Assembly: GCA_001788835.1 (NCBI GenBank) | Contig: MFXK01000028.1 | Location: forward strand, 60,256-124,255 | Direction: 5' to 3' | DNA from: Candidatus Peregrinibacteria bacterium RIFOXYB2_FULL_33_20 | GTDB taxonomy: Bacteria > Patescibacteriota > Gracilibacteria > UBA1369 > GWF2-33-10 | Length of the DNA stretch: 64,000 nucleotides | Part shown: positions 3,806 through 42,681 of the stretch, piece after piece | Position numbering within the stretch: position 1 is the first letter of the stretch | Layout of the letters: the number at the start of each line of letters is the position of its first letter | Made by a program: the position numbers and the translations under genes | Notes under the pieces: generated by a model | What the model was told of the DNA's origin: nothing | Databases searched by the model: none | What the model saw: only the letters and a program-made list of their open reading frames with translations

Positions 3806-3826
3806 GTGTTTTTTATTTTTTACTTT

Positions 3827-4498
3827 TCATAAAGGCTTCTTCAACGGCACTCCAACTTTTCTTGGATATTTTGTATCAGTGTCAGCAACTTTTTCGACTA
3901 AAACTATTGCTCTTGAGCCTAAATCATTTTTAAGTTTATATTCATAAATGTTTGTGATTTTAGAATTCAAAATTTCTAAAGCTTTGACTGAATCTTGAAT
4001 TTCCTGCTGAAAGTTCGGTCCTTTGTATGAGATTAGCACTCCTCCCACTTCCAAAAAAGGCATAGCATATTCCAACAAAACATTCAAAGGTGCTAAGGCT
4101 TTGGCTGTGACTAAATCAAATTTCCCCCGGAAATTTTTCTGATGAGCAATTTCTTCTATCCTGCCATAAACTGTTTTTACATTTTTTAAATTCAATTCTT
4201 TGGTGATTCCATCCAAAACTTTTATTTTTTTCTGAGTTGAATCTAACAAAGCAACCTCTAAATTAGGATAATAAATCGCCAAAGGTATCCCGGGAAGGCC
4301 ACCTCCACTTCCTAAATCTATTAATTTTTTATTATCACCAAAATTTAAGAAATTACCTAAAGCCAAACTATCTTCAACATGTTTCTCCCAAAAAACTTCC
4401 TCATCATGGCGGGAAATCAAATTCATTTCTCTATTAATTTTTAGCAATAAAACCTGATATTTTTTTAATAACTGTTTTTTTTCAACTATAATATTCAT
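3827..4498 (-). CDS. rsmG: 16S rRNA (guanine527-N7)-methyltransferase RsmG/GidB
   Basis: Size and SAM-binding motif DLGSGGGLPGIPLAI. The overall GidB-like sequence includes KFDLVTAKALAPL. Confidence 0.85.
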   Translation of the reverse strand: MNIIVEKKQLLKKYQVLLLKINREMNLISRHDEEVFWEKHVEDSLALGNFLNFGDNKKLIDLGSGGGLPGIPLAIYYPNLEVALLDSTQKKIKVLDGITKELNLKNVKTVYGRIEEIAHQKNFRGKFDLVTAKALAPLNVLLEYAMPFLEVGGVLISYKGPNFQQEIQDSVKALEILNSKITNIYEYKLKNDLGSRAIVLVEKVADTDTKYPRKVGVPLKKPL

Positions 4499-8947: not shown

Positions 8948-8996
8948 AAAATCATAGTTCATCAAATAATCATTTTAAATCATAGTTAAAGACAAT

Positions 8997-9857: not shown

Positions 9858-9877
9858 TTTTAAATTTTGAATTAATT

Positions 9878-10963: not shown

Positions 10964-11060
10964 ACAACTTAAAAAAATCACTTAAAAATCTTCTTGCACT
11001 TTCATAAATAATTTGATAAAAACAGAATTATGAAATTATTTTTATTCATTTGTATTTTAA

Positions 11061-25398: not shown

Positions 25399-28300
25399 TT
25401 ATTTTAATTCTATCTCCACTGGATCGCTGAGCGTGAAAATTTGACTACCGTCGCTACTTATGATGCCGGCGTAGATTTTATCTTTTGGCGTAAGGTCTGC
25501 GGTGTTTTCTAGAGTGGTGGGACAAGGACAGATATTGCATTGCGGGACGGCAGTATAAACGCCCTGGTCAAGCTGGTTCATCAAATCGTCGCTGTGAGTG
25601 AAACCCTGCACCTGATCAGGTTGATCATCTTTCTTGTTTAACGGATCAGAGCCGCGCAGGATTTCTTGATAATCAGTGATGCCACCTTTATCAGTGTCTG
25701 GATCATTGAGGTCAGTGCCATATTTTTTCTCTTTTAAATTTGATAAACCTTCGTTGTCAGTATCATCATCACTGGCATCAAGCGGATTGGTAGCCTCTTG
25801 AATTTCCTTGAAATCATTTACACCGCCACCATCAGTATCAGCTAGGTTTGGATCAGTACCGTATTTTTGTTCTTCCGTGAGAGTAAGACCGTCGTGATCA
25901 GCATCGCTGTCAGGCACATAAGGATCAAGATCCAGTTTTTCTTCTTCGACGTTTGTAAGGCCGTCATGATCAGAATCAACTTCATAACAGTTGTAAATTT
26001 GGAAAACCCGATCAGCAATTTCCAGAAATTTGCCTCTGGTCAAGTCTTCGTTAGGTTGGCTGGCTTCCTCTTGAGTTAAAATGAAAGGTTTAGCCAGTTC
26101 AGTTTTAAAATTTAAATATGGCGTTAAATCCTCAGCAATATTGATCCAAGCTTGATACCATGGTTCGGTTGTTTGCACGTTAGGTAGAGTGATGATAGTT
26201 TGTTTTTTATCAGTCAGGAATTTAGCCAAAACTTCAGTGATAATTTTGGCTTGCTCGGCCAAATTGATAAAGGCGTTTGGCTTAAATTCTGTGAGGCCGG
26301 TACTGGTATCCAGGGTAGCTAAATAACCGGTGATATAGCCTTTCAAGAACGCTTCTTTGGTATCGGCGAAAATCCATGATTCAACTTGATCAAGCAGGAT
26401 ATCGCTGAAGACAGGCGGGTTCTGATAAGATTGTTCTGATGGTTTGGTGCAGAGCATGCCAAGCATAATCTTGGTAAATTCAACACGGGTGATTTTCTCG
26501 TCAGGTTTTAAATTAATCTGACCACTTTCCTCCGTACCGTTCAATACGCCATTATCATACAGCGTCTTAATGGTTGGATAAATTGGGTCATCAGTTGAGA
26601 TATCGCTAAAGGGAGAGACTTCTGGCTGTAAAGGATTTTGATCAAGCTGGTCATTGATATTGTCATGATCAGTGTCTGGATCATTTGGATTTGTTCCTTT
26701 ATGATATTCTTCGAGATTAGTCAGTTCATCATTATCATTGTCCATAGCTGAATCTTTCGGATCAAGTGGATTTAAAGAATAGATTAATTCTTCTTTATCA
26801 GGAATGCCGTCTTGATCAGAATCTTTCTTGTCTAAAGCAACCGGGTTAATTTGTGATAAATTAACTTGTTTGGAATTAAGACTTTGTAGATCAGGGCTTT
26901 TTTCGCTGGAAATATAAATTTCCGCTAGCAGCTTTGATTTGTTGTCAGTCAATTCAATCACCAAAGGATCGGTTTCATCTTCAACTGCTTTTGGCCTTAG
27001 ATCCAATTCTTTTTGCAATAAGAAAATGTTGCCATTGGTAGCAATGATCGCTAAACGTAAGTTGTTTTCATCCAAAATTTCTAGACCGCCTGGATACAAT
27101 GGATCATCTCCAGGTAAAGTATTGGCTTTGAGAGAATTTTCTAAAATTTTTGTAAAAATACCATTTAAATTGCTGACACTATTTGCTGAAAATTTGTAAT
27201 CATTACTAAGAGTCCTGACATCAGTATTCACGTCAGGCACAATTATTGTGCTGAACACAGTTTCGTGCGTCTGAGTATCGATAATCGCCAGTGAAGTTGG
27301 CAAGTTGTAATCAGCTGACAGGATGTCGGTGTAATACTCATCCTTTTTTTCATCAGCGATCAGTAATCTTGGAATGTCTGGATTCAAAGTCGCAATCACT
27401 TCATTTTGATCGTTTTTGATTACAAATTCATCTAAAGTAGTCAAATCATTGACTTGGAATTGTCCATTTTCGTCAGAGAAATATTTTTTATCTTGGGAAA
27501 TGCTAGGTGTTTCCAGAGGAGTTAAAACACCGTCTCTTTCACGCAAGATTGTGATTGGTATTTCAGATTCGGCAGGATTAAGTCCTCCTTCAATTGAGCC
27601 GCTGGTAGCTGTAGATTGATTTAATTTGATCTTGGGTACAGACATGTTCACTTTAATATTTTTGGTATTTTTATGCCCATTGCGATCAAAAACAGTTAAA
27701 GCAATTAATTTGGGGTCTAAATCATCATAAGGACCGATATTGAAAGTGGAAGCAGCTTCGCTAAGAATTTCATAATCATTGCTAGTATCTCCATCATTAT
27801 CACTGTCAGTGTTGGCATCAATATCCCATCCATATAAGGAGATTTCTCCATTTGGGTCAAATGATTTAGAAGCGTCAAGAGCCTTGGTTTTAAATATTGA
27901 TAAATCGATTTCCGTAGCTCCAGGATCAGCGTAAGGTTCGGTATTGTCAGCGCAAACTTGAGGCGAGACCAAAATGACATTGGAATCGGTGCTGAATACA
28001 CCGTGAGAATCGAAGCCTCTGAAATTGATAAAATAATTACCATTATCCAAACTGTAATTGATCAAAGTTTGCTTGAAAGAATTAATATTACTGAATTCTA
28101 CCACTTCTGCTCTGTTTAGATTTAAACTAGGACCGGATAGAAAATTAATTTCCGCTTCATCTCGATTGGTGGATAAAATTGAACTATCGGCAAAAAGCAT
28201 CATGCCTGGAGATAAGTGCTGAAGATCGCTAGTTAGGGTGGTGTTGATAATTTCAATAAGACCACTTTTCACCTTAATTTTCGCACCATAACGACCATTT

Positions 28301-31300
28301 AGGATGGTGAAAGTTTTATTTTTTGTTAGTCTATAAGTTAGGCTTTCGTCAAGACTAGAATCAGCTTTTAAGAGGTTTATTGTGAATTCAGCGTCATTGA
28401 GGGTGTGAATTAATCTATTACCATAAAAGGCATCGCTTTCTCCATTCACAAGATCTGATTGATAGCTAGTTAATTTTGTGTTTGAGCTGAATTTGGTTAA
28501 AGTGATTTGAGCTTCATTAATATCAGGAATAGCTAAATTTTGATTTTGATTTAAATTTATTTTTAAATTATCGTCAATATTCACATTAAGCTTGGCATTA
28601 GCTGTTAGTAGATTTGTTCCCGGGCTGAAAATTGAACTATCTTTACTGATGTTTAAATCCATCTCTCCTGCCTCTAATTTCAAGGTAAACGGTTTATCGC
28701 TTAAGGTCGGGATAGTAAAAGACGATTTTTCTTTGATAATGGCTTGGCTGCCGTCGGCAAAAATTAAAGCAATTTGCGAGTCAGCGTCAGTGTAAATATT
28801 ATCATTTGGGCCTAAAGCGTTGCTCTCAATAAAATCACTAGACTTGGAAATATTAGGCGAGCCTTTCAGGGCTTCAAATTTAATTTCATTGATATTGGTG
28901 TCAGTCGTGGCATTATTAGATTTAATCAGCTCAGGGAGAATAAATAATTTACGGCTGATACTTTTGCTTAGCTTACGATCAAAAGCTGTGCGTGATTTTC
29001 TGATTTCGGCGAGATAGCCGTAGAAATCATTTAATCTGTTCTCATATAAAAAGTTAAAACTCACAGTCTGGTCATTATTTGAAAGAGTATGTAGATCGTT
29101 AAGCGTTGGATAGTGAACATTGATGGAGGCTAAATCGGTAATTTCTGGCGAGCGGCTAAGAAATTTTTGGGAGGCTTTATTCGTTTTATTAAATTTGATA
29201 TACAGGTCAGGTCCGATTGAATAAACAATATCATCATCACCATCATTGTCAGCATCAAACATCACTAATCTGGAATTAAGACTGTCATCGATATAGTTCA
29301 TCAATCGATCATTAATTTGCTGTTTACTGTCATAAATAAATATTCCTTTATTAACCATTTGCGGAGCCATCGAGCTATTGTTTGATACATCTGATAAACT
29401 CACTTGAGCGGTTAGTTGTTTTTCGGCTTCTTTGATTTTTAACACTTCTTCTTGTAATTGACTTTGTAAAATATCAATAACGTGATTTTGTGCGTTTAGG
29501 TTTGGTTGGTAGGTGCGATTATCAAAAACAATATTTTGGTAAGTAGCAAAATTATTGCCGGCTAAAACAAATGGATCGGAATTATTGGTTAATAGTTTGT
29601 AAAAGTTTTGATTATTTTGATTAGCAATTAAGGTTTCATTTAATGAGTTTTCTTTATCCATGTATCCCAGCAATTCTTGTCTTAGACTTAAATAAGGTTT
29701 TAAATTTTCGTTTAAGGCTAAAGGACTGTCTAAATCAGCCATGGCTTTTTTTTCGATTTCTGGAAGCGGATACTTAGCCATGAGTTTTTGGATATCAAAA
29801 TTTTGGCTATCTGCGACGAGGTAAATGTCTTTTTCAAATTTTTCTTTTTCGGTGTTGAATTTTTTACTTTTTTCCGTAAATGTTTTGGTGACTTGAAGTA
29901 AATTATGGACATAGATGTTTTTCAAATTTTCTAAGTCGTTATAATTATAACTTTCTGGACTGGACAGGCTTTGTTCTTGGGTGGGTGGCATTGGTTCACT
30001 TCCACTAGGGGTTAAGGCATTATTCGTTAGATTGTTTAGATCTTCTACGCTGTTATTAATATCTTCACCAGCTTTTTGGATAACGGTATCTGTCGCAGAC
30101 TGGGCGGTGTTGGTTACATATTTGAAGCCCTTATTGATGGTTTCGGTTAATTTATCAGAGAATTTATTAGCATTTTCCGCGGCTTTGTTGGCAAGATCAG
30201 TAATAAAAGTAGTTTGTAGACTAAAATTAGTAAAAGCATCAATGCGGATTAAATCGTAGAAGTCAATTTTTAAATTTGGGATTTCGCTGGTCGCTAAACT
30301 TAAGTCAATGGGTAGCACTGGTGTTAAAGGACGAGCGGTTAAGTCTTCAATGACGGTTTTTAGTTTTAATTCCGAAGTAGGCAAGAAACCAGAACGGATG
30401 ATGCAGACAATTTTTATAATTTTACTTAAAATTGAAGAAACAATCGTTAATTCATTAGGCAGCTTTGGCAAAGTAGGCGCTGGCGGGATGTTAGGTAGTT
30501 TGGGGAAAGAAAGTGGGGGTAATTTTGGCAGATTGAAAATACTTAAATCTGGCGGTGACGGCAATAAAGGCACTTGTGGCAGATTAGTCTCCAACGGAAC
30601 GATCTGCGGTAGAGTCAGTTGAGGTAAAGCCGGAATATTGATGGCGTCAGGTTCGAATTTAATTACCGGCCAAGTGATAGTCAACCCCGCCTGAATATGA
30701 GACACATCAATGATAATATTCGGCCATTTCGGCAAATCCAAGATTGGAATGTCCGGGATAAAAACGAATAAACTTAATAGCAGTTGATATAAAGTTAATC
30801 TTTGCGTTTTGCATTTATCACAGCCTTCCTGATATTCAACCGCTAAATTAATAAAACCTTTCCAGGTTTTGACCGTTTTGATGATGTTTCTTATCTCGGC
30901 GACCCAAGTGCCGATTCTTTGAGTATTGGTCTGAATATAGCCAATTGTGAAATCAATTATAGCCTCAACGTAACATAAAATTTGATATGTATAATATAAG
31001 ACTTGCTGCTTAATTTGAATGATTTGCATGGGCAGATTAGCGTAAGCTTCAAGAGTGGCAATATTTTTTTCGACATTACCCATTAACTCCAAGACCGCTC
31101 TTTTATAATTTTCTCCGCTAACACCAGTCCAGTTTTTGGAAACTTGTTTAAAATTATCATTCAGATTTTTAAGCCAAATTTTAGCTTCTTTTTTTATTCT
31201 GGTAATTTCTTCCGGCGAATAAGTTGGTAATTTAATTACGATTTCTTGAGGTTGAATTTTTAATAAGGGCAGTTTATTTAAAGCTGTCAAAATATCGTTA

Positions 31301-34300
31301 GGACTAGTCATCTTTTGGGAAAAATTTTGTTGTATTTTGTTATTAGAAGCGCCGGTGATAGATTTAAAATCAGGATAAATAAAAATTAAATCAGGCAGAT
31401 CAAGCAAAGAAGCAAACTCATCACTTTGTCTGGACCACCAATCAGTAAATACCGATGGAAAGCCAGGGACCCGAATATTTTTGCTAACTACCGCTTTGAC
31501 GTTGTATTTACCTAAGTTGTAACTTTGGATGCCGCCGGTGGTTTTGGTGTCAATACTGTTTCCAGCATTTGAATCTCCGCCCAGGGCTATGGCCATCACT
31601 CCCTTGGTAGACTCAATAGCGTTATTGGCATTGGCAATTGCTCCTTCAATTGCGCCATTGATAGTTCCGCAAATATCAAGATTAGTGGTGGCGGAAATTA
31701 TGTCCCAAATCGGGATGGCAAAAGCCCAGCATTTACCAAATGGGAATGTACCAATGCAGATAGCTGTACCAAGGCCGCCGTTTAGAGTAGGGGAGATATA
31801 AAAGCGGAAATTTGCCGGTGTAGATGGATAGCAGGTAATGGCGCTACAAACGACAGGCAAAAATGGAATAGTGCCTAGTATTGGCAAGGGTAAAGGGTCC
31901 ATCATTACTGGCGTGCCAAAAACTTGATACATGCCAGGGACTAAGAAGGCAACGTTCATAGGTAAAGCTAGACAACCACTGCCGCAAGTTAAAAAGGACA
32001 TGGCTTTATCAACCGCCCCATTAACTTTGTCTAAAGCTTTATTGAGGTCGGCATCGATCACGCCATAGCTTTTCATGGCACTGTCAATCATTGCCTGAGG
32101 AGAAGTGCCAGAAGGCTTTTGTGAATATTCTCCCTTTAAGGCATCGTAGATATCTTGAGGGCTGCCAATGGTGTTGTCCCATTCGTCAGGTAGGCCATCG
32201 CCATCACTATCGCCTTCCAGCAAGGTTTTTTTGTAATCATTAACTGATGGTGGTAGAGAATCTTTTTCATAATCATCTGGAATGCCATTTTTATTATTAT
32301 CTGGCGGTATTTTGATCGGGACATCAAGATCCAAGTCTTTAGTCGGATTTACTGGCTCAGGCGGAGCACTTAGACTTTCCAGATAAGAAATATATCCATT
32401 TTTGTTTTTGCTTTGTGATAACATTCTCATTAACTGGCCGGAATTGTTGCCTTCAGTGGTGAGAGCCATATCTAAGTATTCATCATCATTTAAGTTGCTT
32501 AACAAAATTTTTACTTTAGGGATACTTGCCTCACTTTTTACTTTAGCTTCATATTCAAACTTAATTTCAGAGTTAGCAGTTAAATTAATATTTTGTACAA
32601 TAAAAGGGCGGTCGGACGAGGAGGTTTGACTGATCATTGGACCTTGGGTGGAACAAGTCAGACAGACAATGCTATCTTGGACATAATCCATCATACCAGG
32701 GATAGAATCGATAAAAGCTAAATTTTTGAGGGTGGATGAGGAGGAATTTTTAATTTTGATTGTATATTTAATCAAATCATTAGGCTCTAGAATATCACCA
32801 CTTTCGTCAACGCCATATTTGCTTGACTCTGCTAAATCAGCAATAGTGTTGATATAAGCAAAAATTATTTCTTCATTGTCAATAGAGATAGGATAGAAAT
32901 TAGCATTATCATTATCAGTAGTTTTATCGTCAGTGGGCATATCGTCAAACTTTACTATCAATTCTGAAGCTAAATTAGTGCTGTCGTCCACTTTGAGTCC
33001 CAAATTCACGATCTGTTGTCCTTCAATGGTTTCTTCTTGATGGTCAAAAGGATTTACAATTTTATTTTTGCGTTTAGAGTTGGAATTGCCAGTATCGATA
33101 TTTGGCAAGGGTTTTTTGAATTGCCCTTGGTAATTATAAAAAGCTTTAACATTAGCCGCCTCATCACTGATAACAAAATCCGGATAACCATCATTATTTA
33201 AATCGCCAACTTTAACTTGATCAATTTTCCCACTCATTTGCAACGGTAAATATTCTCTCTCTAATGCGCCATTTTTATTCCAATAAATATAAGAGCAAAC
33301 CGTTTCTCCCTCTGAACAGCTATCTTTTGAAGCCACGATCAAATCTGTTAGACCGTCTTGATTGAAGTCTCCTTTATCAATGGCCTCAATGCCGTTATTA
33401 ATAAAAACAATTTGTCCTTTGGTCCTTAACTTCATACTGCCATAATTTTGAATCAAATTAATGGCTCCGTCTTCATAAGCCACGAGAATATCGTTATTGC
33501 CGTCACCATCGTAATCAAATGGTGCAATTACTTCTTGGATATTATCATTATTGCTCATGATTGGGACGCCAATGGTTTTATCATAACCGGTGGCGGAAAT
33601 AGTATTTTTATTCTCATCTAATTTGATTAAAGGATCGCCAGTTAAAATGCCAATTTCACTGCTATATGGCAAGGTGGCTTCCCCTAGATTAAGGCCGCTG
33701 CTAAACAGTAAAATATGTTTATTATCGCCTTTGAAGCCTATGCCCCCCACATCTTGCGCTGAATCATAACTTTGATAATTTGATGATGGTAATTGATTAG
33801 GGTTAGCATCATTGTCGGTATTTAAAATTAGATAACCATAGGGGCTGAAACTTGATTGATTAAATTTAGATTTTTTAATTTGTAGATTTCCGGCGTTGGC
33901 GGAAAGTTTCAAGGAAATACCATTATTAATTGCGCTTGGTGGGGTGGTGAGGCTGGGCGAGTTATCCAGCAGCGACACATCTTGATTGTTTTTTAGAACA
34001 TAAAAAATTTGTCCGATATTTTGAGAACCTTCCCAGATGTCCAGAGTTAGTGCCTCAAAATTGTTATTAATTGTTAACTTAAAATTTTTCGCTGGTAGTT
34101 CCAGGGAACCATTAGCATTAATGGCCATTTTTAAATTGTTATTTTGGCTTAATTTAAGTGTTTTTAAGTTAAGCCGTCCTTGATAATTTTCATCATCATT
34201 ATTATTGGTCGAGGTAGAGGCAGGATTTCGTCCATTTGTTTTGGATTGAAGTGTATTAGCAAAAGATTTTTCGCTTATTTTGACGCTAAACTGGCTTTGG

Positions 34301-37300
34301 TAATCAGGATTAAGTAATAGATAAATTCCAGGAGTATTTTTATTAATTTCCTTTGCCACAGAAATTTCTGCTAAGTTAGTGGTTAGCGGATCAAGTGAAA
34401 TATAAACTTTGCCCAAGGATTTTTGCTCTACTGGATCGGTAAGTTGGATAGAGAGAGGATCAATGGCTTTACTGGAAGCAATGACTGAAGTAGTTAGGTA
34501 ATTTTGGTCTAAAATTTTTATTTGTCCCTGAGGGCTGATCGACGCTATAATTTGTTTGAGGTTGGTATCTTCGCTCAGACTTAAAGATGCTTCTGTTTTA
34601 CCGGCAAAAGTAAAGGCGCTGGCAAAATTATCTGTTTGGTTTAGATCTGCGCCATTGAATCCCAACAATGAACCAAATAGAGCATTGGGCTTAGTGTCTT
34701 GGAAGAAGCCAGAATTAAGTGAAAATACGGCTTTCAGTTCAAGCGTGGCTGAGATTAAGTTATTGCTTTCGGCAATTAGATGAAGCAGGCCGGAAGAATC
34801 ATTTCCTAATAAATTTACTTCTGCCAGGCCATTTTTGGTTTTGGCGGATTTTTTACTCAAAGTTCCAAAAGTTTTGCTGGCATCAGTAAATCTGAAATTA
34901 ATTTGAGTATTAGAATTATTATAGGCGAAATTACCATATTGATCGAATAATTTAGCTTGGATTTGAACGGCTTCCAGATTGTCGACCTGCTCTTTAACGC
35001 TGGATAAAATAATTTTGTCAGGGCTAGCCGGCAAAATATTAATGATGACTGATGAGCTTTCCACTCCAGGAGCAGAAACCATAATTTCAGCTTTATCAGC
35101 GATGGTCAAAGCTTTGAAGCCATTGTTAGCTATACCGCTTTTGATTTCCAAATTTTCAGAATTGTTGATAATTCCCAGAGTCGAATCTGATAAGGCCATC
35201 TTATAGGGAATGTTTATGCCGTCAATTAATTGATCGTCTCCATCAGTAATTTTTATGTTCAAAGTTAACTCATCATCGGCACCGGCGTGTACTAAATATT
35301 TACTACTGATTAAGTTAAATTTTAAATCATCGCGGGATTCGATTTGGAAGGAGTCAGACACGTTATCGCCGACATTAACTTTGATATTAATATTACCCGG
35401 ATAGTTGGTAGAAGTGATAAAAAATTTTACCATTCCATCAAAAGTGCTGATCTGGATGCCATCTTGATCAGGATTTTCATCTTCAGTATCCACAATTTTT
35501 CCTTCCCCCTCCGCCTTTAAAGTTATAATTTGCAGACCATCATTAGCAATATTCCCGAATTGATCATATAAAACAATGGAAGCTGCGATTTTTGTGTCGC
35601 CTCCAGTAGGAATGACTCGAGAATTTGGCACAATATCTATTTTGGCTGGGTTACCAGGGTAAATAAAAAGTTGATCCTTCACTTCCGGCAGTTGCTCTCC
35701 AATAATAACTGAAGCCGAAATATCCAAAACGCCAGAGATAATCGATGAATCAAAAATGGTATTGGCTTGCCCGTTTTGCACCTGCACTTTGTCTTTTTCT
35801 ATTTGTCCATATTCTTTGGTGGCAATATCAAATTCAATAATTGTAGAATTATCATTTAAATTAATATTACCATCGGCCGTTAAGACAGCGGCTTCTAAGT
35901 ATAATTTTGAAGTGCCATCTGCCGCTACTCTTTTGGTATAAACAGTGTTCTCGCCTTCGACATTAGCAATAATATTTTTTTCTTTAAATGATTTATCCTC
36001 CTCAACATAATTACCGACTACTAAAAGATTTTTTGATAAATTTTTGAAGATATTTTCCGATGAAATTGGAATAGAAATTTGATTGTTGGGATCACTACCA
36101 CTTAAAATTTCTTCACTATCCGTAAAAGTATCGCCGTCACTATCTTGTAATAAAGGATTTTGCGCCAGGTAAACCTCTTGCCCGTCAGTTAATCCGTCAC
36201 CATCGCTGTCGATATTCTTGGGATCAGCGTTCCATTTTAATTCATCAAAATCACTGAGACCATCTTGATCAGAATCAGCGTTATTTGGATCAGTGCCAAT
36301 TTTTAACTCTTCATTATCATTTACGCCATCTTGATCAGCATCAGGTAGGTTTTTGCTGTCATTTTGTTTTTGCCGGTCAGCTTTTAGGGGATCAGTGCCT
36401 TGAATGATTTCGTCGTAGTCGAAAATTGTATCGCTATCGGTATCCGTGGAATTTGGATCAGTGCCATATTGTAAAATTTCACTATTATCATTTAAACCGT
36501 CTTGATCGGTATCAATAGAATCAGGATCAAAAATATTAGATAAAGATTTGGCAACCATAATGGCGAATTCTCCTCTGGTCATGTCGTCCTCCAGCCATTG
36601 GATGAACTCATTTTTAGTGTTGAGTTGTTCATTAAACCAGCTTTGGAAAGTAGTTAAATCAGAAGAATCCAGCCTTTCGAAACGATTTTCCGGATAAATT
36701 TGATAACGTTTGGCGGTAATGACATAATTATAGTACCAAGGCAGATTAGCGTCAGTATTAGCAATTACATTAGCTTTAGCGCTTTCCAAAATAATTTTTA
36801 TAGCTTCAGCTCTGGAAATGTTGTCTTTTGGCACAAAGTAATTTTGATAAGGACCATCTTTATATCCGCTAATGATGTTTTCATTTTTAGCAAATTCCAC
36901 ACAATATTTAAGCTCATCGCTGATATTTTGATCTGGAAAAGCTTGAGGACTATAAATCTTGTCAATTTCTTCTTTGAGGCCATTCGCAAATTCCAAACAA
37001 TTGATGCCTCTTAAACTTGATGATAATTTAACCATTTGTTCGCGTGTGATAGGCGAGTTAGGATAGAAAGCGTGACTAGTTAGATTGTCGCTACTAATTT
37101 CAACTCCGCTTAAAACACCCCGTTTGAGTAGTTTTAAAACTGCACTATATGATTCATGGAGAGGATCAAGATCAACGAATAGTGTGCTGTCTTTTTGCGT
37201 AGGATCATAGCCATTCGCTAATTCATCATTATCATTGAAGTTATCGCCGTCAGTATCCGTTTTGGTATAGCTGGTGTGCAACATTTTTTCTTCCAGGTCT

Positions 37301-40300
37301 GGCAGTGCATCATGATCAGTATCTTTGGCAAATATCGTGGCGGCTTGGGCTTTAGCAGAAATAAATTTTAATATTTGTTCGTAGGTTTTATTGAAGCTGA
37401 CTAAACTTTTTATTTCTCCTTCTAGTTTTTGCAGATTAAAAGTACCGTTATCTTTGGGATGAAAAATAATTTCCGCGATAATATTTTGAAGGTCATCTAA
37501 AATTAACCAGTCAAAAATTGAATCGTCTTTTAATTTTAAATTGTAGGCCGGATTAATTCTGACTCCGCCGTAACTGTCAATTGTAGCCACTAACAGATTT
37601 CCTTTGTCCTTAATAGTAATTTTTTCTTCGCTTTTAGTTAAATTAAGATTAGATTTAATTAAGATATAATCACTAAATTTTTCAGGAGTTTTTAGATCAT
37701 TAAAGTTGCTAATCAACGTGGCTTTGTCAAAACTAATAATGATTGAAGCCAGCAAATTTTGCTTGTCCTTGGTTATAATATTGATGCGACTTGGTTTATT
37801 TAACTTTATTGGTAATGGTTCGATCAGATAACTGATATTTTTCAATTTAACCGTGCCATCAGTTTTAGAAATCTCAGCAATATCGTTTTTATCACTGTCT
37901 TTCACCATTAAACCATTAAGAATTTCTTCTTCATAACTGATATCTTGTGTGCCGGCGCTTTCTTTTTGAAAAATGGTTAACCGCAAAGCTTCTTTTTTGC
38001 TTTCAATTTCGATTTTATTGGAAATCAGATTATCTTGATTGATAGCCATAACATAGATTTTTGCTTTGGCGGGGATGTCGGTGGATTTAAGTTTAAAAGT
38101 TGCTTGTCCATTGACTAAAACAGTTTCGGGTGAACTGATAATTTCAAAAGCCTTAAGGCTGTCAGCGTTTTTGGGATTTTCAATCATGAGCTTAACAGTC
38201 GTAGCGTTATCATCTTTGTTGATAAAACTAAATTTGCTGTTGCCTTTTTTGGCAGTGACCGTTAAGTTAGTCAGGTCATTGCTATCAGAGCTTAAGAGAT
38301 TTTTGGAACTGATAATAAATAAACTAGAAGTTTTATTGTTTTGCGTACTTTGGTAGCCGGCGGAATTTTCACTGTTATTATTTTCTTCCGTAACTATGTC
38401 GGTGATCGGTTCTTGTAGCCCTAAAATTTGAGCCCCTTCTTCGCCACAAACACTTTGTTGATCGCTAGAATAGACTGAGTCATCCAGGGTATCAATCCAG
38501 GCCAAAATCGCATCTAGCCAATCAAGTAAGTTAATAGGCTTAATATCGTCGGTCATTGGTGACTGAGTGGTCGTTTTATCAGCATTATCTTTGCTTGAAT
38601 TATAATTAACATCTGTTTCTGGCGATGTATCACCGTTAGCTTGATAGCTAATTTTGTCTGAAGCTCCGTAGGTATTGAGATAAAAAATTTCATAACCATT
38701 AGGGACTTTGTTCCCGTCATAGGTATCGACAGCGGGATCGCTGTTCAAATATTTATTTAGAACATATTGATATTTTTGATCAATATTCATATTTCTCCAG
38801 TCAATAGCGTCTTTTACTTTTGCCTGAAATTCCTCATCAAATATATCAGTTAGCATGGTAGCAAATTTACTGCCGCCAGGAAGTTTGGCAATTTCCAGCC
38901 CTTTTTCCCCCAATTCTTGTTGGAATTCGTCCCAGTTTTTGGACTGAAAAATATTAGGATATTGAAGTTCTGTATAAGCATTACCTTTGCTTCGAAAAGA
39001 GACATACCTTGGATTATCAACCGGCAGATCAGTGGCAATACCATCTTTTAATTGTGCTTGGATGGTGCTATTAGTTGGTTCTTTATGATAAACAACGCTG
39101 GAAATTCGTTTGGCATCAGCACTGTCATCGGTAAACCCATCAGAAGATTTTTCAGCATAGTAACGGTCTACATAAATATCAGCACCGGTATAGCCACGAA
39201 AAACATTTTTACCTAAGTGATATGATTTTGAACCAAAGGCGAAAAATTTTTCTTGCACTTGCGCGTAATTATTCGGATCAAGGCCAATTCCTTTGATTAA
39301 TTCATAAAGGCTGGCTTTTTTATCATCGATCAGTAGGTAAGATTGATTAAATGGAGTATATTTGTTGGAAAATTCCCCCTTTTCGATATATTCATTCACT
39401 TCTGCCTTGATGTCATTATCCAAATCTTCCTGAGTGTAATTTTCTTTTGGGTCTTGATTTAATAAATCATCCACAGATTCGACGACATCTTCAGCAAAAG
39501 CCAAATGAGAATCGCCGTTGGATAAACCACCTTCCCCCCAAAAATTAGGGCCATACTTGAAATCAAAACAATCTTGATAGCTAGCGCCATGCTCGGTGGA
39601 AGTTTTTTTTGTGACTTTGCGACCGTTGGCACGATCGAAAACTGGAGCAATAGCCGCCTCTACAAAACAATACTGGGGATAATAATAAAATTCGCCATTG
39701 CAACCAGCGTATTCTTTACCTTTGATATCGTCATCATTTACATCTTTATTATATGGTTCGTAGGAAAGGGGATTATAGACTTTATTGGCCTCAATTAGTT
39801 TAGCGTCAGTTTCTTTGTTGAAATCACCTAAATATAAAGAACATTGGCTAGCATTAGATACTTTGTACATTGGTTTGCCCAGAATATAGGGATGAGCAAA
39901 AGTATGCTTGTCCTTATCTTTCACGCTGTGGTTAACGAATTCGGCATCTTTGAAATCCGTGTGTTTGGATTCGCTGTCTTTTGTGTAATAAAGAGTCCCG
40001 TACAAAACCACCTTATGCAAAAGAGGAATATCTTGTTGTAAATCATTATTTACTGCTGAATCAATTTTGCTTTCCATGGCGCTGTTAATGCCGGTAAGAA
40101 AATTTAAAACGATCTGATCTTTTTTGGTTACCAAATTAATGATGCTGTCATAATCGTTTTTTTTGTTGCCATCAGCATCGGTATAGTTGATTTCATATCG
40201 GCCAGTGTAATCAATCATGTCATTAATTTCGCCGATAAATTTTTTATATATTTCGTAATATTGAGAGAAAAAAGTTTCGCTGACTTTTTTGCTAAAAATA

Positions 40301-41862
40301 TCAGGGAGCATCTCGATCATGCTTCTATCATCAGCATTTTTGTCACCAGCATCTTCATTTATCTGACCATCACAATCATTATCATTGTCATGACAGCTAC
40401 TTTTGGCATTCATTTGCCCGGTATCTTCATCACAGAAGCCATCTTCATCATCGTCCCATTCTAGATGAAATTTACTTTGTGCATCATAACAGTTGCGATC
40501 ATTGGTGGATGGTTTTTCATCGATGAACTCGGAGGCGGTGGAATCGCGTACAAAGATTTTTGCTAAGAAAAAAGGACTATTCTTATTCATGGGGTCATAG
40601 CCGTATTCTCTTTCCACTCCAGTTGGAATGCCATCGCCATCTGGATCTTTGCCATCGCCGTCATCATCGGTTTTACAGGTGCCAGGACAGCCGTCGCCAT
40701 TTAAATCGCCGTAAGGATCTTCATCCAGCTGATTATCTTTATCGCGATCGTCCCAGCTTAAGTCGCCACCGTCTTCATTAAGCTTGCCATCCTGGTCATC
40801 ATCAAGTTTGTTGGAAGAACCAATATCTTCATCAATCAAGCCATCGTTATCATCATCCTCACCATTTTCAATTTCTTCATCAGTTTTTTTATCGCCATCG
40901 TTATCAAGTCCGTCTGATTTGTCAAAAACATCACCTCGTCTTTCTTGCAAGGTTTTCACTAATTCTTTGGTATATCTTAGGAAACTGATGTTTTCCCAGA
41001 AATCGGTGTAGTTAAGATAATTTTTGAAAACAAAACTATTGGTGTTGTCTTCGGTACGGAATTGGTCGTGAAAAAGCAGCTTTTTGTCAAAATCACTGTA
41101 GGTTTCAATCTCATTATGATAAAGATAGTTTTTGTCTAAATAAGAAGCCAGCAATTCTAGACCGTCATTATCTCCCACTGGTGGCATAATTACTCCGTGC
41201 CAAATTTCTGGTGCTCGATTTTTGGCATCTTGGTTGTATTCAAATGAATCCGTGGTGGAATTATAAATATACGATTTATCTTCAAAATCCGTGTAAGGGT
41301 ACATACTTAGAAAAGTGTTACCATTCTTATTGACAATTGGTAATGGAATAGATTTAGATTGATCTTCAGTGGGAAAATTACTAATCAATACCACTCCACG
41401 TAATGAAGCCAAAGTGTTTTTACCTTTTTCGCCTTCGAAATATAGTTTTTCCAATGCGGCGCTGATATCTGATGGTTTTTCATTATCATCTATCTGAATA
41501 ATCATGGCTTTAGTCAACGGCAATTTTTGTTGTACCAATTCTGCGTATCGATCAATTCTTTGTTTGAGTTTTTTACTGCTTAGATATTTATCATAATCTC
41601 CGCCTCTTAAGCCGGTTAATTCTTCATTGTAGTTATATAAAGCTTTCGGGGCCAAGATAGCCACAATGTCGTGATACTCAATCGGATCTTCATCCAAGAG
41701 ATTTTCTTTAGCGTCAGAACTTAAATTTAATTTATTTAATAAGCTGACGAAGAAATTTTGATTGGCTGCGTAAATAATAGGAATATTGATAATTTGTACG
41801 CCAACGAAGATAGTTAAAAGGAATAAAGATAATAATCGTTGATAAAATTTACCGAATATCAT
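25399..41862 (-). CDS. Giant (5,487 aa) secreted multidomain surface protein. Contains TSP3-type Ca-binding repeats, SLH-like triplets, Ig-like (Big_1), FG-GAP/VCBS-like, DUF11-like and PKD-like modules, plus an unassigned central hydrophobic module
   Basis: Single uninterrupted frame. N-terminal signal MIFGKFYQRLLSLFLLTIFVGVQIINIPIIYA. There are many DxDxDGxxDxxE repeats (DSDGDGLTDGQE, DTDGDNFNDNDE). SLH-like units include FSDISTDDPIYPTIKTLYDNGVLNGT...ITRVEF. FG-GAP-like loops include DYDGDGNNDILV and GDLNNDGYPDFVI. A PKD-like segment reads DASKSFDPNGEISLYGWDID. See findings for approximate module coordinates. Confidence 0.9.
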   Translation of the reverse strand: MIFGKFYQRLLSLFLLTIFVGVQIINIPIIYAANQNFFVSLLNKLNLSSDAKENLLDEDPIEYHDIVAILAPKALYNYNEELTGLRGGDYDKYLSSKKLKQRIDRYAELVQQKLPLTKAMIIQIDDNEKPSDISAALEKLYFEGEKGKNTLASLRGVVLISNFPTEDQSKSIPLPIVNKNGNTFLSMYPYTDFEDKSYIYNSTTDSFEYNQDAKNRAPEIWHGVIMPPVGDNDGLELLASYLDKNYLYHNEIETYSDFDKKLLFHDQFRTEDNTNSFVFKNYLNYTDFWENISFLRYTKELVKTLQERRGDVFDKSDGLDNDGDKKTDEEIENGEDDDNDGLIDEDIGSSNKLDDDQDGKLNEDGGDLSWDDRDKDNQLDEDPYGDLNGDGCPGTCKTDDDGDGKDPDGDGIPTGVEREYGYDPMNKNSPFFLAKIFVRDSTASEFIDEKPSTNDRNCYDAQSKFHLEWDDDEDGFCDEDTGQMNAKSSCHDNDNDCDGQINEDAGDKNADDRSMIEMLPDIFSKKVSETFFSQYYEIYKKFIGEINDMIDYTGRYEINYTDADGNKKNDYDSIINLVTKKDQIVLNFLTGINSAMESKIDSAVNNDLQQDIPLLHKVVLYGTLYYTKDSESKHTDFKDAEFVNHSVKDKDKHTFAHPYILGKPMYKVSNASQCSLYLGDFNKETDAKLIEANKVYNPLSYEPYNKDVNDDDIKGKEYAGCNGEFYYYPQYCFVEAAIAPVFDRANGRKVTKKTSTEHGASYQDCFDFKYGPNFWGEGGLSNGDSHLAFAEDVVESVDDLLNQDPKENYTQEDLDNDIKAEVNEYIEKGEFSNKYTPFNQSYLLIDDKKASLYELIKGIGLDPNNYAQVQEKFFAFGSKSYHLGKNVFRGYTGADIYVDRYYAEKSSDGFTDDSADAKRISSVVYHKEPTNSTIQAQLKDGIATDLPVDNPRYVSFRSKGNAYTELQYPNIFQSKNWDEFQQELGEKGLEIAKLPGGSKFATMLTDIFDEEFQAKVKDAIDWRNMNIDQKYQYVLNKYLNSDPAVDTYDGNKVPNGYEIFYLNTYGASDKISYQANGDTSPETDVNYNSSKDNADKTTTQSPMTDDIKPINLLDWLDAILAWIDTLDDSVYSSDQQSVCGEEGAQILGLQEPITDIVTEENNNSENSAGYQSTQNNKTSSLFIISSKNLLSSDSNDLTNLTVTAKKGNSKFSFINKDDNATTVKLMIENPKNADSLKAFEIISSPETVLVNGQATFKLKSTDIPAKAKIYVMAINQDNLISNKIEIESKKEALRLTIFQKESAGTQDISYEEEILNGLMVKDSDKNDIAEISKTDGTVKLKNISYLIEPLPIKLNKPSRINIITKDKQNLLASIIISFDKATLISNFNDLKTPEKFSDYILIKSNLNLTKSEEKITIKDKGNLLVATIDSYGGVRINPAYNLKLKDDSIFDWLILDDLQNIIAEIIFHPKDNGTFNLQKLEGEIKSLVSFNKTYEQILKFISAKAQAATIFAKDTDHDALPDLEEKMLHTSYTKTDTDGDNFNDNDELANGYDPTQKDSTLFVDLDPLHESYSAVLKLLKRGVLSGVEISSDNLTSHAFYPNSPITREQMVKLSSSLRGINCLEFANGLKEEIDKIYSPQAFPDQNISDELKYCVEFAKNENIISGYKDGPYQNYFVPKDNISRAEAIKIILESAKANVIANTDANLPWYYNYVITAKRYQIYPENRFERLDSSDLTTFQSWFNEQLNTKNEFIQWLEDDMTRGEFAIMVAKSLSNIFDPDSIDTDQDGLNDNSEILQYGTDPNSTDTDSDTIFDYDEIIQGTDPLKADRQKQNDSKNLPDADQDGVNDNEELKIGTDPNNADSDQDGLSDFDELKWNADPKNIDSDGDGLTDGQEVYLAQNPLLQDSDGDTFTDSEEILSGSDPNNQISIPISSENIFKNLSKNLLVVGNYVEEDKSFKEKNIIANVEGENTVYTKRVAADGTSKLYLEAAVLTADGNINLNDNSTIIEFDIATKEYGQIEKDKVQVQNGQANTIFDSSIISGVLDISASVIIGEQLPEVKDQLFIYPGNPAKIDIVPNSRVIPTGGDTKIAASIVLYDQFGNIANDGLQIITLKAEGEGKIVDTEDENPDQDGIQISTFDGMVKFFITSTNYPGNINIKVNVGDNVSDSFQIESRDDLKFNLISSKYLVHAGADDELTLNIKITDGDDQLIDGINIPYKMALSDSTLGIINNSENLEIKSGIANNGFKALTIADKAEIMVSAPGVESSSVIINILPASPDKIILSSVKEQVDNLEAVQIQAKLFDQYGNFAYNNSNTQINFRFTDASKTFGTLSKKSAKTKNGLAEVNLLGNDSSGLLHLIAESNNLISATLELKAVFSLNSGFFQDTKPNALFGSLLGFNGADLNQTDNFASAFTFAGKTEASLSLSEDTNLKQIIASISPQGQIKILDQNYLTTSVIASSKAIDPLSIQLTDPVEQKSLGKVYISLDPLTTNLAEISVAKEINKNTPGIYLLLNPDYQSQFSVKISEKSFANTLQSKTNGRNPASTSTNNNDDENYQGRLNLKTLKLSQNNNLKMAINANGSLELPAKNFKLTINNNFEALTLDIWEGSQNIGQIFYVLKNNQDVSLLDNSPSLTTPPSAINNGISLKLSANAGNLQIKKSKFNQSSFSPYGYLILNTDNDANPNQLPSSNYQSYDSAQDVGGIGFKGDNKHILLFSSGLNLGEATLPYSSEIGILTGDPLIKLDENKNTISATGYDKTIGVPIMSNNDNIQEVIAPFDYDGDGNNDILVAYEDGAINLIQNYGSMKLRTKGQIVFINNGIEAIDKGDFNQDGLTDLIVASKDSCSEGETVCSYIYWNKNGALEREYLPLQMSGKIDQVKVGDLNNDGYPDFVISDEAANVKAFYNYQGQFKKPLPNIDTGNSNSKRKNKIVNPFDHQEETIEGQQIVNLGLKVDDSTNLASELIVKFDDMPTDDKTTDNDNANFYPISIDNEEIIFAYINTIADLAESSKYGVDESGDILEPNDLIKYTIKIKNSSSSTLKNLAFIDSIPGMMDYVQDSIVCLTCSTQGPMISQTSSSDRPFIVQNINLTANSEIKFEYEAKVKSEASIPKVKILLSNLNDDEYLDMALTTEGNNSGQLMRMLSQSKNKNGYISYLESLSAPPEPVNPTKDLDLDVPIKIPPDNNKNGIPDDYEKDSLPPSVNDYKKTLLEGDSDGDGLPDEWDNTIGSPQDIYDALKGEYSQKPSGTSPQAMIDSAMKSYGVIDADLNKALDKVNGAVDKAMSFLTCGSGCLALPMNVAFLVPGMYQVFGTPVMMDPLPLPILGTIPFLPVVCSAITCYPSTPANFRFYISPTLNGGLGTAICIGTFPFGKCWAFAIPIWDIISATTNLDICGTINGAIEGAIANANNAIESTKGVMAIALGGDSNAGNSIDTKTTGGIQSYNLGKYNVKAVVSKNIRVPGFPSVFTDWWSRQSDEFASLLDLPDLIFIYPDFKSITGASNNKIQQNFSQKMTSPNDILTALNKLPLLKIQPQEIVIKLPTYSPEEITRIKKEAKIWLKNLNDNFKQVSKNWTGVSGENYKRAVLELMGNVEKNIATLEAYANLPMQIIQIKQQVLYYTYQILCYVEAIIDFTIGYIQTNTQRIGTWVAEIRNIIKTVKTWKGFINLAVEYQEGCDKCKTQRLTLYQLLLSLFVFIPDIPILDLPKWPNIIIDVSHIQAGLTITWPVIKFEPDAINIPALPQLTLPQIVPLETNLPQVPLLPSPPDLSIFNLPKLPPLSFPKLPNIPPAPTLPKLPNELTIVSSILSKIIKIVCIIRSGFLPTSELKLKTVIEDLTARPLTPVLPIDLSLATSEIPNLKIDFYDLIRIDAFTNFSLQTTFITDLANKAAENANKFSDKLTETINKGFKYVTNTAQSATDTVIQKAGEDINNSVEDLNNLTNNALTPSGSEPMPPTQEQSLSSPESYNYNDLENLKNIYVHNLLQVTKTFTEKSKKFNTEKEKFEKDIYLVADSQNFDIQKLMAKYPLPEIEKKAMADLDSPLALNENLKPYLSLRQELLGYMDKENSLNETLIANQNNQNFYKLLTNNSDPFVLAGNNFATYQNIVFDNRTYQPNLNAQNHVIDILQSQLQEEVLKIKEAEKQLTAQVSLSDVSNNSSMAPQMVNKGIFIYDSKQQINDRLMNYIDDSLNSRLVMFDADNDGDDDIVYSIGPDLYIKFNKTNKASQKFLSRSPEITDLASINVHYPTLNDLHTLSNNDQTVSFNFLYENRLNDFYGYLAEIRKSRTAFDRKLSKSISRKLFILPELIKSNNATTDTNINEIKFEALKGSPNISKSSDFIESNALGPNDNIYTDADSQIALIFADGSQAIIKEKSSFTIPTLSDKPFTLKLEAGEMDLNISKDSSIFSPGTNLLTANAKLNVNIDDNLKINLNQNQNLAIPDINEAQITLTKFSSNTKLTSYQSDLVNGESDAFYGNRLIHTLNDAEFTINLLKADSSLDESLTYRLTKNKTFTILNGRYGAKIKVKSGLIEIINTTLTSDLQHLSPGMMLFADSSILSTNRDEAEINFLSGPSLNLNRAEVVEFSNINSFKQTLINYSLDNGNYFINFRGFDSHGVFSTDSNVILVSPQVCADNTEPYADPGATEIDLSIFKTKALDASKSFDPNGEISLYGWDIDANTDSDNDGDTSNDYEILSEAASTFNIGPYDDLDPKLIALTVFDRNGHKNTKNIKVNMSVPKIKLNQSTATSGSIEGGLNPAESEIPITILRERDGVLTPLETPSISQDKKYFSDENGQFQVNDLTTLDEFVIKNDQNEVIATLNPDIPRLLIADEKKDEYYTDILSADYNLPTSLAIIDTQTHETVFSTIIVPDVNTDVRTLSNDYKFSANSVSNLNGIFTKILENSLKANTLPGDDPLYPGGLEILDENNLRLAIIATNGNIFLLQKELDLRPKAVEDETDPLVIELTDNKSKLLAEIYISSEKSPDLQSLNSKQVNLSQINPVALDKKDSDQDGIPDKEELIYSLNPLDPKDSAMDNDNDELTNLEEYHKGTNPNDPDTDHDNINDQLDQNPLQPEVSPFSDISTDDPIYPTIKTLYDNGVLNGTEESGQINLKPDEKITRVEFTKIMLGMLCTKPSEQSYQNPPVFSDILLDQVESWIFADTKEAFLKGYITGYLATLDTSTGLTEFKPNAFINLAEQAKIITEVLAKFLTDKKQTIITLPNVQTTEPWYQAWINIAEDLTPYLNFKTELAKPFILTQEEASQPNEDLTRGKFLEIADRVFQIYNCYEVDSDHDGLTNVEEEKLDLDPYVPDSDADHDGLTLTEEQKYGTDPNLADTDGGGVNDFKEIQEATNPLDASDDDTDNEGLSNLKEKKYGTDLNDPDTDKGGITDYQEILRGSDPLNKKDDQPDQVQGFTHSDDLMNQLDQGVYTAVPQCNICPCPTTLENTADLTPKDKIYAGIISSDGSQIFTLSDPVEIELK

Positions 41863-42044: not shown

Positions 42045-42512
42045 TTACTTATAGTTTTTTGTCACACAATAAAAAGAGGTTTTGGTACTACCAGCAGGTG
42101 CTGTAGCAGTTGCTGTATCATAATATCCCGTACCAGTTCCTAAATTTTCAAGTTTTGCACATAAGGCGTAACCTTGTTTTCCTTTTGTTGCAGATGTTGT
42201 ATATAAATAGCTTTCGCATCCAGTTGCTATTCCACTATTAGAGGGATCCTTTGGAATGTTGCCATCCATGTAAGAATTTAATTCTGTGATAGCTGATGTG
42301 CAGTTTGATCCTGTTTTATCCAAATAAGATCCATTATCAGCATAATACAATTCTAAAGCGCCGCTTATACTGCTGATGTCCGCTTTTCTGGCAACATCTC
42401 TGGCGCGCCCTGGAGCTGAGCCAATTTTTGGCAATAATGATACGGCCAAGATACCAATGATGGTGATGACAATCAAAAGTTCAATTAAGGTAAAAGCTTT
42501 TTTGTTTTCCAT
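42045..42512 (-). CDS. Type IV pilin / pseudopilin (class III signal peptide)
   Basis: From M43 of the track ORF: MENKKAFTLIELLIVITIIGILAVSLLP. This has the prepilin cleavage/methylation motif (F+1, E+5; Ala rather than Gly at -1). The globular C-terminal part has four Cys. The 42-aa upstream extension in the track ORF is AT-rich and implausible. Confidence 0.8.
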   Translation of the reverse strand: MENKKAFTLIELLIVITIIGILAVSLLPKIGSAPGRARDVARKADISSISGALELYYADNGSYLDKTGSNCTSAITELNSYMDGNIPKDPSNSGIATGCESYLYTTSATKGKQGYALCAKLENLGTGTGYYDTATATAPAGSTKTSFYCVTKNYK

Positions 42513-42681
42513 AGATGAAAAGTTAAGAATTTTTGCTCTTTCTATTAATTTTAGCACATTTTTGGGGAAATAGTAAATTTTTTGTTGAAATTTTATGAAA
42601 ATATCGTTATATAATTTAGTTTGTAAAGTTACAGGCATGAATTTCGAGTTTATAGATACTTTATAAACTTTTAATTATTCT

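Follow-up and report, generated by a model that had tools for sequence, protein, structure and literature searches.

What is the module at the center of the giant protein encoded in a 64,000-nucleotide stretch of Candidatus Peregrinibacteria bacterium RIFOXYB2_FULL_33_20 (contig MFXK01000028.1, forward-strand positions 60,256 to 124,255; hereafter the window)? The protein is the product of one uninterrupted reading frame of 5,487 amino acids (25399..41862, minus strand), and an initial annotation had noted that its otherwise hydrophilic, extracellular-type chain changes character near the middle. That annotation proposed either an internal multi-pass anchor or a segment that inserts into the membrane of another cell. 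Our data favor a different answer. The hydrophobic stretches are best explained as buried β strands and helix faces rather than membrane spans, and the module, taken alone, is very probably a folded, extracellular, non-transmembrane domain. For its role, we give a probability of about 0.5 to the reading that the module is the rigid hub, and a docking or self-association surface, of a giant wall-bound protein in a pilin-linked apparatus.

The motifs quoted in the initial annotation all lie at the positions claimed, within the single open reading frame (ORF), and the change of character can be measured. Relative to the rest of the giant protein, the module is rich in Cys (1.7% versus 0.5%), Pro (8.1% versus 4.2%), and Trp (1.5% versus 0.4%) and poor in Asp (4.6% versus 10.2%); with 12% of the length, it holds 11 of the 34 Cys residues. 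Its Cys-rich hydrophobic block begins with FLTCGSGCLALP at residue 3290 (31995) and ends with GAIEGAIANAN at residue 3413 (31624). The core occurs as a single copy, with no internal duplication within the giant protein or the window. The giant gene is real, because the identical 5,487-residue product is called on independent public contigs, including a 150.9-kb ENA contig, ERZ27254807:k141_302796; the neighboring glycosyltransferase gene is present on 23 public contigs.

To describe the family, an exhaustive HMMER search was conducted with residues 3260-3990 as the query. It returned 395 cluster representatives at E<=1e-3, 227 of which also passed E<=1e-30. Nearly all of the best 150 of these 395 representatives are proteins of 3,500-6,000 amino acids that carry the module in mid-protein and cover query positions ~14-685, and 150 giant proteins are orthologous to the giant protein along the greater part of its chain. 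A word-indexed protein search found no match for residues 3270-3960 or 3275-3740 despite the hundreds of homologues that the exhaustive search finds; proteins of this size seem to be missed by the word index, so its negatives are unreliable for such queries. In a scan of GTDB with one genome per species, a relative is encoded in 203 species genomes. Taxon labels were taken from the best 80 loci, which are almost all assigned to Candidatus Peregrinibacteria, Peribacteria, Gracilibacteria, or the "Patescibacteria group." At loci L074, L076, L077, L078, L079, and L080, only short ORFs are seen under genetic code 11, and a giant protein of 4,000-4,400 amino acids appears under code 25, in which UGA is read as Gly. 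These code-25 relatives keep the full module signature at 25-29% identity (E values of 1e-145 to 1e-161 with the module hidden Markov model), and the family therefore spans the standard-code and recoded branches of the class.

Two of the loci call for a remark of their own. Locus L040 (JAUVQE010000014.1) carries a typical Peregrinibacteria-type pair of pilin and giant genes in a metagenome-assembled genome labeled Nitrospirota; this contig is probably a binning contaminant. At locus L001 (MFXJ01000013.1), the closest GTDB relative with 60% module identity, the giant gene is split into two ORFs near 10250, inside the module; given the 23 N at this locus, the split is probably an assembly gap or error rather than real.

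An alignment of 118 full modules delimits a conserved core (residues 3275-3920), in which eight Cys residues are 99-100% conserved: C3293, C3297, C3369, C3378, and C3398, all within the Cys-rich block, together with C3681, C3684, and C3820. The set of invariant positions also includes many occupied by Pro, Trp, Gly, Arg, Asp, Glu, and Thr; the eight Cys and numerous Pro, Trp, Arg, Asp, Glu, and Thr residues are held even in the code-25 relatives. Compared with 22 full-length orthologues, the module has a mean identity of 36.4%, versus 27.5% for the rest of the protein, and it is the best-conserved large block of the giant protein. At 49%, the highest identity of any 100-residue block is that of residues 3701-3800, which comprise the hairpin and the beginning of the proline tract. 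The initial annotation had asked whether related giant proteins contain the module with its Cys spacing intact while their flanks vary. The first part holds, whereas the flanks are not simply variable; because they are also partly conserved, the whole protein is an orthologous family with variable inserts and not a shuffled mosaic.

The pattern of Cys conservation follows a disulfide logic, because the invariant residues are even in number and a further, facultative pair is gained or lost together. This pair lies in the loop between helix 1 and helix 2; both members are present in 85 homologues, neither is present in 21, and 13 have only one. Most homologues possess the pair, and the window protein has lost both residues. 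C3339 and C3344 of the window protein are not conserved among homologues. Combined with the secretion signal, the even set of invariant Cys and the pairwise gain and loss are the marks of an extracellular disulfide-bonded domain: the cysteines behave like disulfide partners, from which we infer the bonding itself.

Next, the structure of the module was predicted with AlphaFold2. The first model, built from a 24-sequence alignment, had a mean predicted local distance difference test score (pLDDT) of 59.9 and a predicted template modeling score (pTM) of 0.34; the second, built from 49 sequences, reached 71.1 and 0.46. Both gave the same secondary structure. The hydrophobic block is modeled as β strands and is followed, beyond a disordered variable loop, by a conserved α/β part with the near-invariant elements N-I-x-[IV]-P-G-F-P, W3475, Q3479, E3482, and LPD-IYFIYPD. 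Three long helices form the best part of the model, and the longest, of ~71 residues, would span ~100 Å. The helical region of ~350 residues described in the initial annotation thus shrinks to a three-helix bundle of ~130 residues, the remainder being the disordered loop and mixed α/β structure.

The Leu-Pro tract that follows the hairpin (family consensus ...LPDLPPLPLPKLPDLPPPPKIPKLP) has no regular secondary structure in the model, and its pLDDT of 72-82 points to a defined, packed conformation. Its prolines are individually 95-100% conserved, with P3744, P3790, and P3793 at 100%. Because the tract is conserved position by position and is modeled with fair confidence, we regard it as a specific structural element, which would pack onto the fold.

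We then asked how hydrophobic the module is by membrane standards. Kyte-Doolittle means over 19 residues reach 1.7-1.9 at five segments (a-e) of the module in the window protein, and all 19-residue peaks above 1.4 in the giant protein lie in the module, save the N-terminal signal region and residue 2036. However, criteria that penalize Pro, Gly, and charge do not single these segments out. In each of the 117-119 homologues that were scored, even the most favorable 19-residue Hessa sum stays above 0 in every one of the five segments; the medians range from +7 to +10 kcal/mol (+8.9 kcal/mol for segment d and +7.2 kcal/mol for segment e). The Eisenberg 21-residue criterion is reached in 0-7% of 119 homologues per segment. 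No conserved hydrophobic helix of 19-23 residues with a favorable insertion energy was found in these 117-119 homologues. The hydrophobic segments carry conserved Pro, Gly, Lys, and Asp, and none has the helicity of a membrane span. Segments a to c contain 1-4 Pro each and are modeled as β strands; segment d has ~14 helix-compatible residues, followed by the conserved prolines P3703 and P3706, and is modeled as a helix of 9 residues. Segment e has a mean hydrophobicity of 0.40-0.42 and a hydrophobic moment of 0.39-0.40, with 2-3 conserved Lys in its consensus; it is amphipathic because of these lysines and the moment of 0.40.

The initial annotation recognized no family in the module, and our searches came to the same result. 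Nothing significant was found by sequence or profile searches of Pfam, NCBIfam, PHROGs, and the PDB or by Foldseek against the PDB and BFVD. In Pfam, NCBIfam, PHROGs, and the PDB sequence set, there was no match over residues 3150-4150, and no curated family matched the module better than E 0.006. Matches to WXG100, SNaCT1, and tape-measure families, all weak (E>0.005), were dismissed. When 24 family members were scanned singly against Pfam, no family was matched by more than two of them, and a profile of the alignment found nothing among PDB sequences (best E 0.45). The structure predicted for the segment alone, the fold check suggested with the initial annotation, matched no known fold in the PDB or BFVD: the best Foldseek E value was 1.1 for the first model (PDB), and for the second model the best values were 0.65 (PDB) and 0.57 (BFVD). 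The top Foldseek matches, rejected as generic long helices, were to Enzyme I and axonemal microtubule proteins at a probability of <=0.16. A tblastn search of the module against 50,697 phage records gave no match. The homologues carry public names such as "FG-GAP-like repeat-containing," "DUF11 domain-containing," "uncharacterized repeat protein," and "hypothetical," and the retrieved passages of the literature on giant surface proteins of this clade contain general remarks but no description of the module, its signature, or its gene neighborhood. We conclude that the domain family is not previously described; the same probably applies to the fold.

The proposed role is drawn from the anatomy of the giant protein and from its gene neighborhood. 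Beyond the N-terminal signal, Pfam places extracellular-type domains on both sides of the module. Upstream are TSP3_bac repeats, an immunoglobulin (Ig)-like Glyco_hydro2_C5 domain, an SLH domain near residue 1562, FG-GAP repeats near residue 2830, and a weak match to DUF11; downstream are a weak FecR-like stretch, a second SLH domain near residue 5084, and more TSP3-like repeats. No sortase motif (LPxT[GAS], NPxTG, or LAxTG) occurs anywhere in the giant protein. Two further conserved regions lie outside the module. An N-terminal block (residues 100-300; 40963-41565, minus strand) has 40-47% identity, among the best-conserved parts of the protein, and a consensus that includes PYxDF, ExWHG, and DKNH, with no Pfam match. 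Near the C terminus, a CxxCPC motif followed by a short conserved tail is present in the consensus of full-length homologues. PDB sequence searches with residues 55-360, which contain the N-terminal block, and with residues 4555-5060 found nothing.

A type IV prepilin-like gene lies 182 bp upstream of the giant gene on the same strand, and no terminator-like site was found between the two in the window. The true start of the window prepilin is likely the Met at MENKKAFTLIELL, which gives a pilin of ~155 amino acids. A prepilin-like ORF (G/A-FTLIEL) occupies the same position, directly upstream as expected of a pilin operon, in 22 of the 31 loci that have enough upstream sequence (examples are L022, L026, L031, L032, and L038), and in 22 of 24 after seven distant loci (given as L074-L078, L080) are set aside. 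Further upstream, ORFs recognized by eye from their sequence resemble PilC/GspF in 6 loci and PilB/GspE in 3. On the other side, 52-58 loci have four same-strand genes, which we call D1-D4, located 0-4 kb downstream of the giant gene (examples are L002, L003, and L071, the last at L071:16621-20742). All four products have signal peptides and several Cys, none belongs to a Pfam family, and hhalign found no relation between the D1-D4 families and the module. D1 and D2 may be distant paralogues, to judge from an hhalign probability of 73%.

From these observations, we propose the following arrangement. A small β-rich subdomain would be pinned by the five invariant cysteines of the Cys-rich block, and an elongated three-helix bundle of ~100 Å would be closed by the invariant CxxC. 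The Leu-Pro segment would pack onto this fold in an extended, polyproline-like conformation. The module would thereby form the rigid hub of the giant protein, fixing the geometry of an N-terminal arm (propeller, Ig-like, and TSP3 domains) and a C-terminal arm. Its conserved surface might serve for self-association or for the docking of partners in a surface apparatus specific to the lineage. The upstream pilin gene product and, in most relatives, the four secreted downstream proteins are candidates for such partners.

Several points weigh against this proposal. The hub and docking role has been deduced from anatomy and synteny, and the synteny has gaps: D1-D4 are absent beside the giant gene in the window and in its closest relatives, L001 and L059, and the code-25 relatives mostly have neither the pilin gene nor D1-D4 in the flanks examined. 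The module is therefore not strictly dependent on adjacent partners. Searches of the whole 64-kb window by tblastn and hmmsearch found no D1-D4 homologues. With its 11 Cys, the typical homologue must have at least one that is unpaired, and the CxxxC and CxxC arrangement could equally bind metal. The global confidence of the second model is modest, and the transmembrane assessment is based on hydropathy scales, which are heuristic. The features on which these arguments draw are collected in Table 1.

Table 1. Features of the giant protein, its central module, and associated genes. Window positions are given with strand; modeled residues count from residue 3272 of the giant protein (module residue 1), and pLDDT values are those of the second model.
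Feature	Window position	Strand	Residues of giant protein	Residues of modeled module	pLDDT	Remarks
Type IV prepilin-like gene	42045..42638	-				KAFTLIELLIV motif; Pfam N_methyl, E 1e-7
Signal peptide or signal anchor			1-33			N terminus
Conserved core of module	30103..32040	-	3275-3920			~650 amino acids; unit recurring in homologues
N-terminal helix				2-21	59-62	
Cys-rich hydrophobic block	31624-31995	-	3290-3413	40-112	70-89	Model: β strands
Predicted small β-rich subdomain of Cys-rich block	31669..31986	-	3293-3398			
Helices				114-147	60-76	
Variable Gly/Ser-rich loop	31474..31617	-	3416-3463	145-192	<50	Low conservation, gaps; predicted disordered
Conserved α/β part	31216..31479	-	3462-3549	~199-276	57-87	Includes β hairpin; helix 199-216, strands 221-224, 263-276
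Three long helices	30823..31215	-	3550-3680	279-306, 310-337, 339-409	84-92	Elongated bundle; 28, 28, and 71 residues
Invariant CxxC (CDKC; C3681, C3684)	30811..30822	-	3681-3684	410-413		End of longest helix
Hydrophobic segment d, LTLYQLLLSLFVFIPDIPIL	30739..30798	-	3689-3708	420-428	55-58	Model: short hydrophobic helix
β hairpin	30643..30720	-	3715-3740	444-469	66-86	Invariant D3719, S3721, P3732
Leu-Pro tract	30451..30633	-	3744-3804	470-531	72-82	LPDLPPLPLP-type
Hydrophobic stretch LTIVSSILSKIIKIVCIIRSGFL	30382-30450	-	3805-3827			
Amphipathic helix, segment e	30385..30456	-	3803-3826	532-555	69-75	Overlaps LTIVSSILSKIIKIVCIIRSGFL; invariant C3820, conserved lysines
C-terminal part of module	30091..30384	-	3827-3924			Invariant E3831, T3842; strand; closing helix of ~40 residues
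Closing helix				615-653	73-84	
C-terminal CxxCPC motif (CNICPC)	25522-25539	-	5442-5447			No family
D1						~198 amino acids; 54 loci
D2						~218 amino acids; 58 loci
D3						~592 amino acids; 57 loci
D4						~375 amino acids; 52 loci

The module might instead be latently membrane-active, as in the second proposal of the initial annotation. Soluble on the producing cell, it would expose moderately hydrophobic, aromatic-, Gly-, and Pro-rich segments on contact with a host or prey, and these segments, or an amphipathic hairpin or helix, would insert in the manner of translocation domains or fusion loops and help an epibiotic candidate phyla radiation (CPR) cell to reach the contents of its host. 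We consider this possible but unlikely. Seven of the 12 19-residue segments of the giant protein with a Wimley-White interfacial energy below -3 kcal/mol are in the module, and the best of them, residues 3368-3386, equals the signal peptide at -6.4 kcal/mol. Such a concentration of interfacial hydrophobicity is compatible both with the hydrophobic core of a domain and with a surface that acts on membranes. The strong amphipathicity of helix e would fit the proposal, as would the extreme conservation, which is expected of a mechanistic core; the cultivated relatives in this class, moreover, are predators with an epibiotic lifestyle, and their giant surface proteins are suspected of a part in host contact (PMC8080830, PMC13059738). 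However, AlphaFold2 places the hydrophobic segments in confident β strands, as would be expected for a domain core. The loop between the invariant C3369 and C3378 varies in length among homologues and is rich in Gly, Pro, and Ser, and its hydrophobicity is not conserved. The module also lacks a conserved hydrophobic or amphipathic hairpin of membrane-spanning length, and the Foldseek searches of the PDB and BFVD revealed no likeness to a pore former, a toxin translocation domain, or a viral fusogen.

A more far-reaching idea makes the module the core of a previously unrecognized, class-wide host-contact apparatus of Peregrinibacteria and Gracilibacteria. Its conserved Cys/Leu-Pro domain would have a new fold, and a rearrangement of it triggered by disulfides or by contact would insert into the host envelope or open it. 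To us this seems distinctly unlikely. If it were true, the pilin-linked 600-kDa protein and its four secreted partners would represent a new class of cell-to-cell penetration or fusion device.

A catalytic or self-processing domain is improbable. On this account, R3688, K3712, D3719, S3721, E3831, T3842, and the CxxC would form an active site for autoproteolysis of the protein into two halves, for thiol-disulfide exchange, or for action on host wall polymers. Invariant charged and nucleophilic residues and the CxxC are indeed kept at 25% identity, and the position of the module between two arms, each with its own SLH region, would suit cleavage into two wall-bound pieces. Yet no sequence or fold likeness to any enzyme or self-cleaving module emerged from the searches described above, and the invariant positions are occupied mostly by Pro, Cys, Trp, and Gly, as is typical of residues that determine structure.

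The first proposal of the initial annotation, an internal multi-pass anchor, conflicts with the hydropathy results and the predicted structure, and we regard it as very improbable. Here, segments d and e, or the Cys-rich block, would cross or re-enter the cytoplasmic membrane of the producer and leave both halves of the protein outside. The five Kyte-Doolittle maxima speak for such an anchor; the peak near segment e recurs in many homologues, and extracellular-type domains on both sides of the module are allowed by an even number of passes. Against this stand the positive Hessa sums in every homologue, the rarity with which the Eisenberg criterion is reached, and the modeling of the Cys-rich block as β strands. 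The prolines of segments a to c, the short helix-compatible stretch of segment d, and the conserved lysines of segment e point the same way. In addition, the 95 residues between d and e would have to be cytoplasmic, including the hairpin and the tract with the highest conservation in the protein.

Finally, a low-complexity filler or wall-spanning spacer with no specific fold, which the proline-rich composition and the disordered Gly/Ser loop might evoke, is virtually excluded because the module is conserved position by position across homologues, down to its individual prolines, contains the best-conserved 100 residues of the protein, and has a proline tract modeled at the pLDDT given above; linker-like behavior, with variable length and low confidence, is limited to residues 3416-3463.

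The genes around the giant gene and its pilin are mostly ordinary housekeeping genes, including those for PBP2, YchF, a polyamine pathway, MurA, and IspG. The polyamine-related run (7841-12449, plus strand) encodes a deoxyhypusine-synthase-like protein, a carbon-nitrogen hydrolase, a Porphyromonas-type agmatine deiminase, and a pyridoxal phosphate-dependent Orn/Arg decarboxylase, and it is notable for a reduced CPR genome. Closer to the giant gene are a secreted subtilase (Peptidase_S8, 546 amino acids; 19394-21034, plus strand) and a 462-residue ORF with no Pfam family (21838-23226, plus strand), whose order is kept on other contigs of this organism.

Much of bacterial diversity belongs to the CPR, or Patescibacteria, which live attached to other cells, and how they recognize, hold, and exploit their hosts is largely unknown outside the Saccharibacteria. 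In hundreds of genomes of Peregrinibacteria and Gracilibacteria, conservation within the largest protein is highest in the domain described here, of ~650 residues. Its signature, which combines eight Cys, a CxxC, and an LPDLPPLPLP-type tract, provides a sequence marker with which to find the apparatus in metagenomes and metaproteomes, and the module itself is a concrete, clonable target for structural, binding, and liposome work. Even if it is only a structural hub, it would represent a new fold family, and its description corrects a tempting mis-annotation as transmembrane.

How does the module compare with known systems? The proline-rich segments of Gram-positive wall-spanning regions and the TonB proline-rich rod are hydrophilic, with Pro accompanied by Lys, Glu, and Ala, and they are variable in length and fast-evolving. 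Our module shares with such wall- and periplasm-spanning segments a ~60-residue proline-rich tract that precedes a hydrophobic or amphipathic helix in an envelope protein, but its tract consists of Leu/Ile-Pro, is conserved by position, and is fairly confident in the model. Nor does it resemble a sortase-anchored region: the protein has no sorting motif, and the Leu-Pro tract lies 1,680 residues from the C terminus.

Large clostridial toxins and the Tc toxin component TcA possess hydrophobic translocation or delivery regions, and ClyA and Hbl are α-pore-formers. The giant protein is similar in having moderately hydrophobic segments amid a very large hydrophilic secreted chain, as well as a long bundle of helices, one end of which bears a hydrophobic element. 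It differs in that the module has no match in the PDB and no conserved membrane-spanning hairpin or helix. Class I viral fusion proteins can carry an internal fusion loop bounded by a disulfide, together with a Cys motif that follows a long helix. The order of elements in the module is the same, with a Cys-flanked Gly/Pro/aromatic block, long helices, and a CxxC at the chain reversal; in contrast, the hydrophobicity of its inter-Cys loop is not conserved, the module is not followed by a C-terminal transmembrane anchor, and neither Foldseek against BFVD and the PDB nor tblastn against the phage records gave a match.

The neighborhood recalls PilY1/PilC, which are likewise large Sec-exported β-propeller proteins encoded right downstream of a pilin gene. 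The giant protein is 4-5 times larger, carries SLH domains, and contains a central module with no counterpart there, and Pfam gives no match to the PilY1/PilC family in it.

Giant adhesin-like surface proteins are known in outline from this clade (PMC4736985, PMC8080830, PMC13059738). Among the Gracilibacteria-class CPR, Candidatus Peribacter riflensis has large extracellular Cys-rich proteins (PMC4736985), and Vampirococcus lugosii has giant proteins in its membrane proteome (PMC8080830); among the named proteins of this kind is VAMP_16_20 (4,163 amino acids). In the passages retrieved, the published accounts give domains and sizes and do not describe the module, its Cys/Pro signature, or the synteny with the pilin and the four downstream genes. 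What the giant protein of the window has in common with those of Peribacter and Vampirococcus is the lineage, the rank of largest or near-largest protein of a small genome, a signal sequence, FG-GAP/integrin-like, DUF11, and SLH modules, and a suspected role in attachment to the host.

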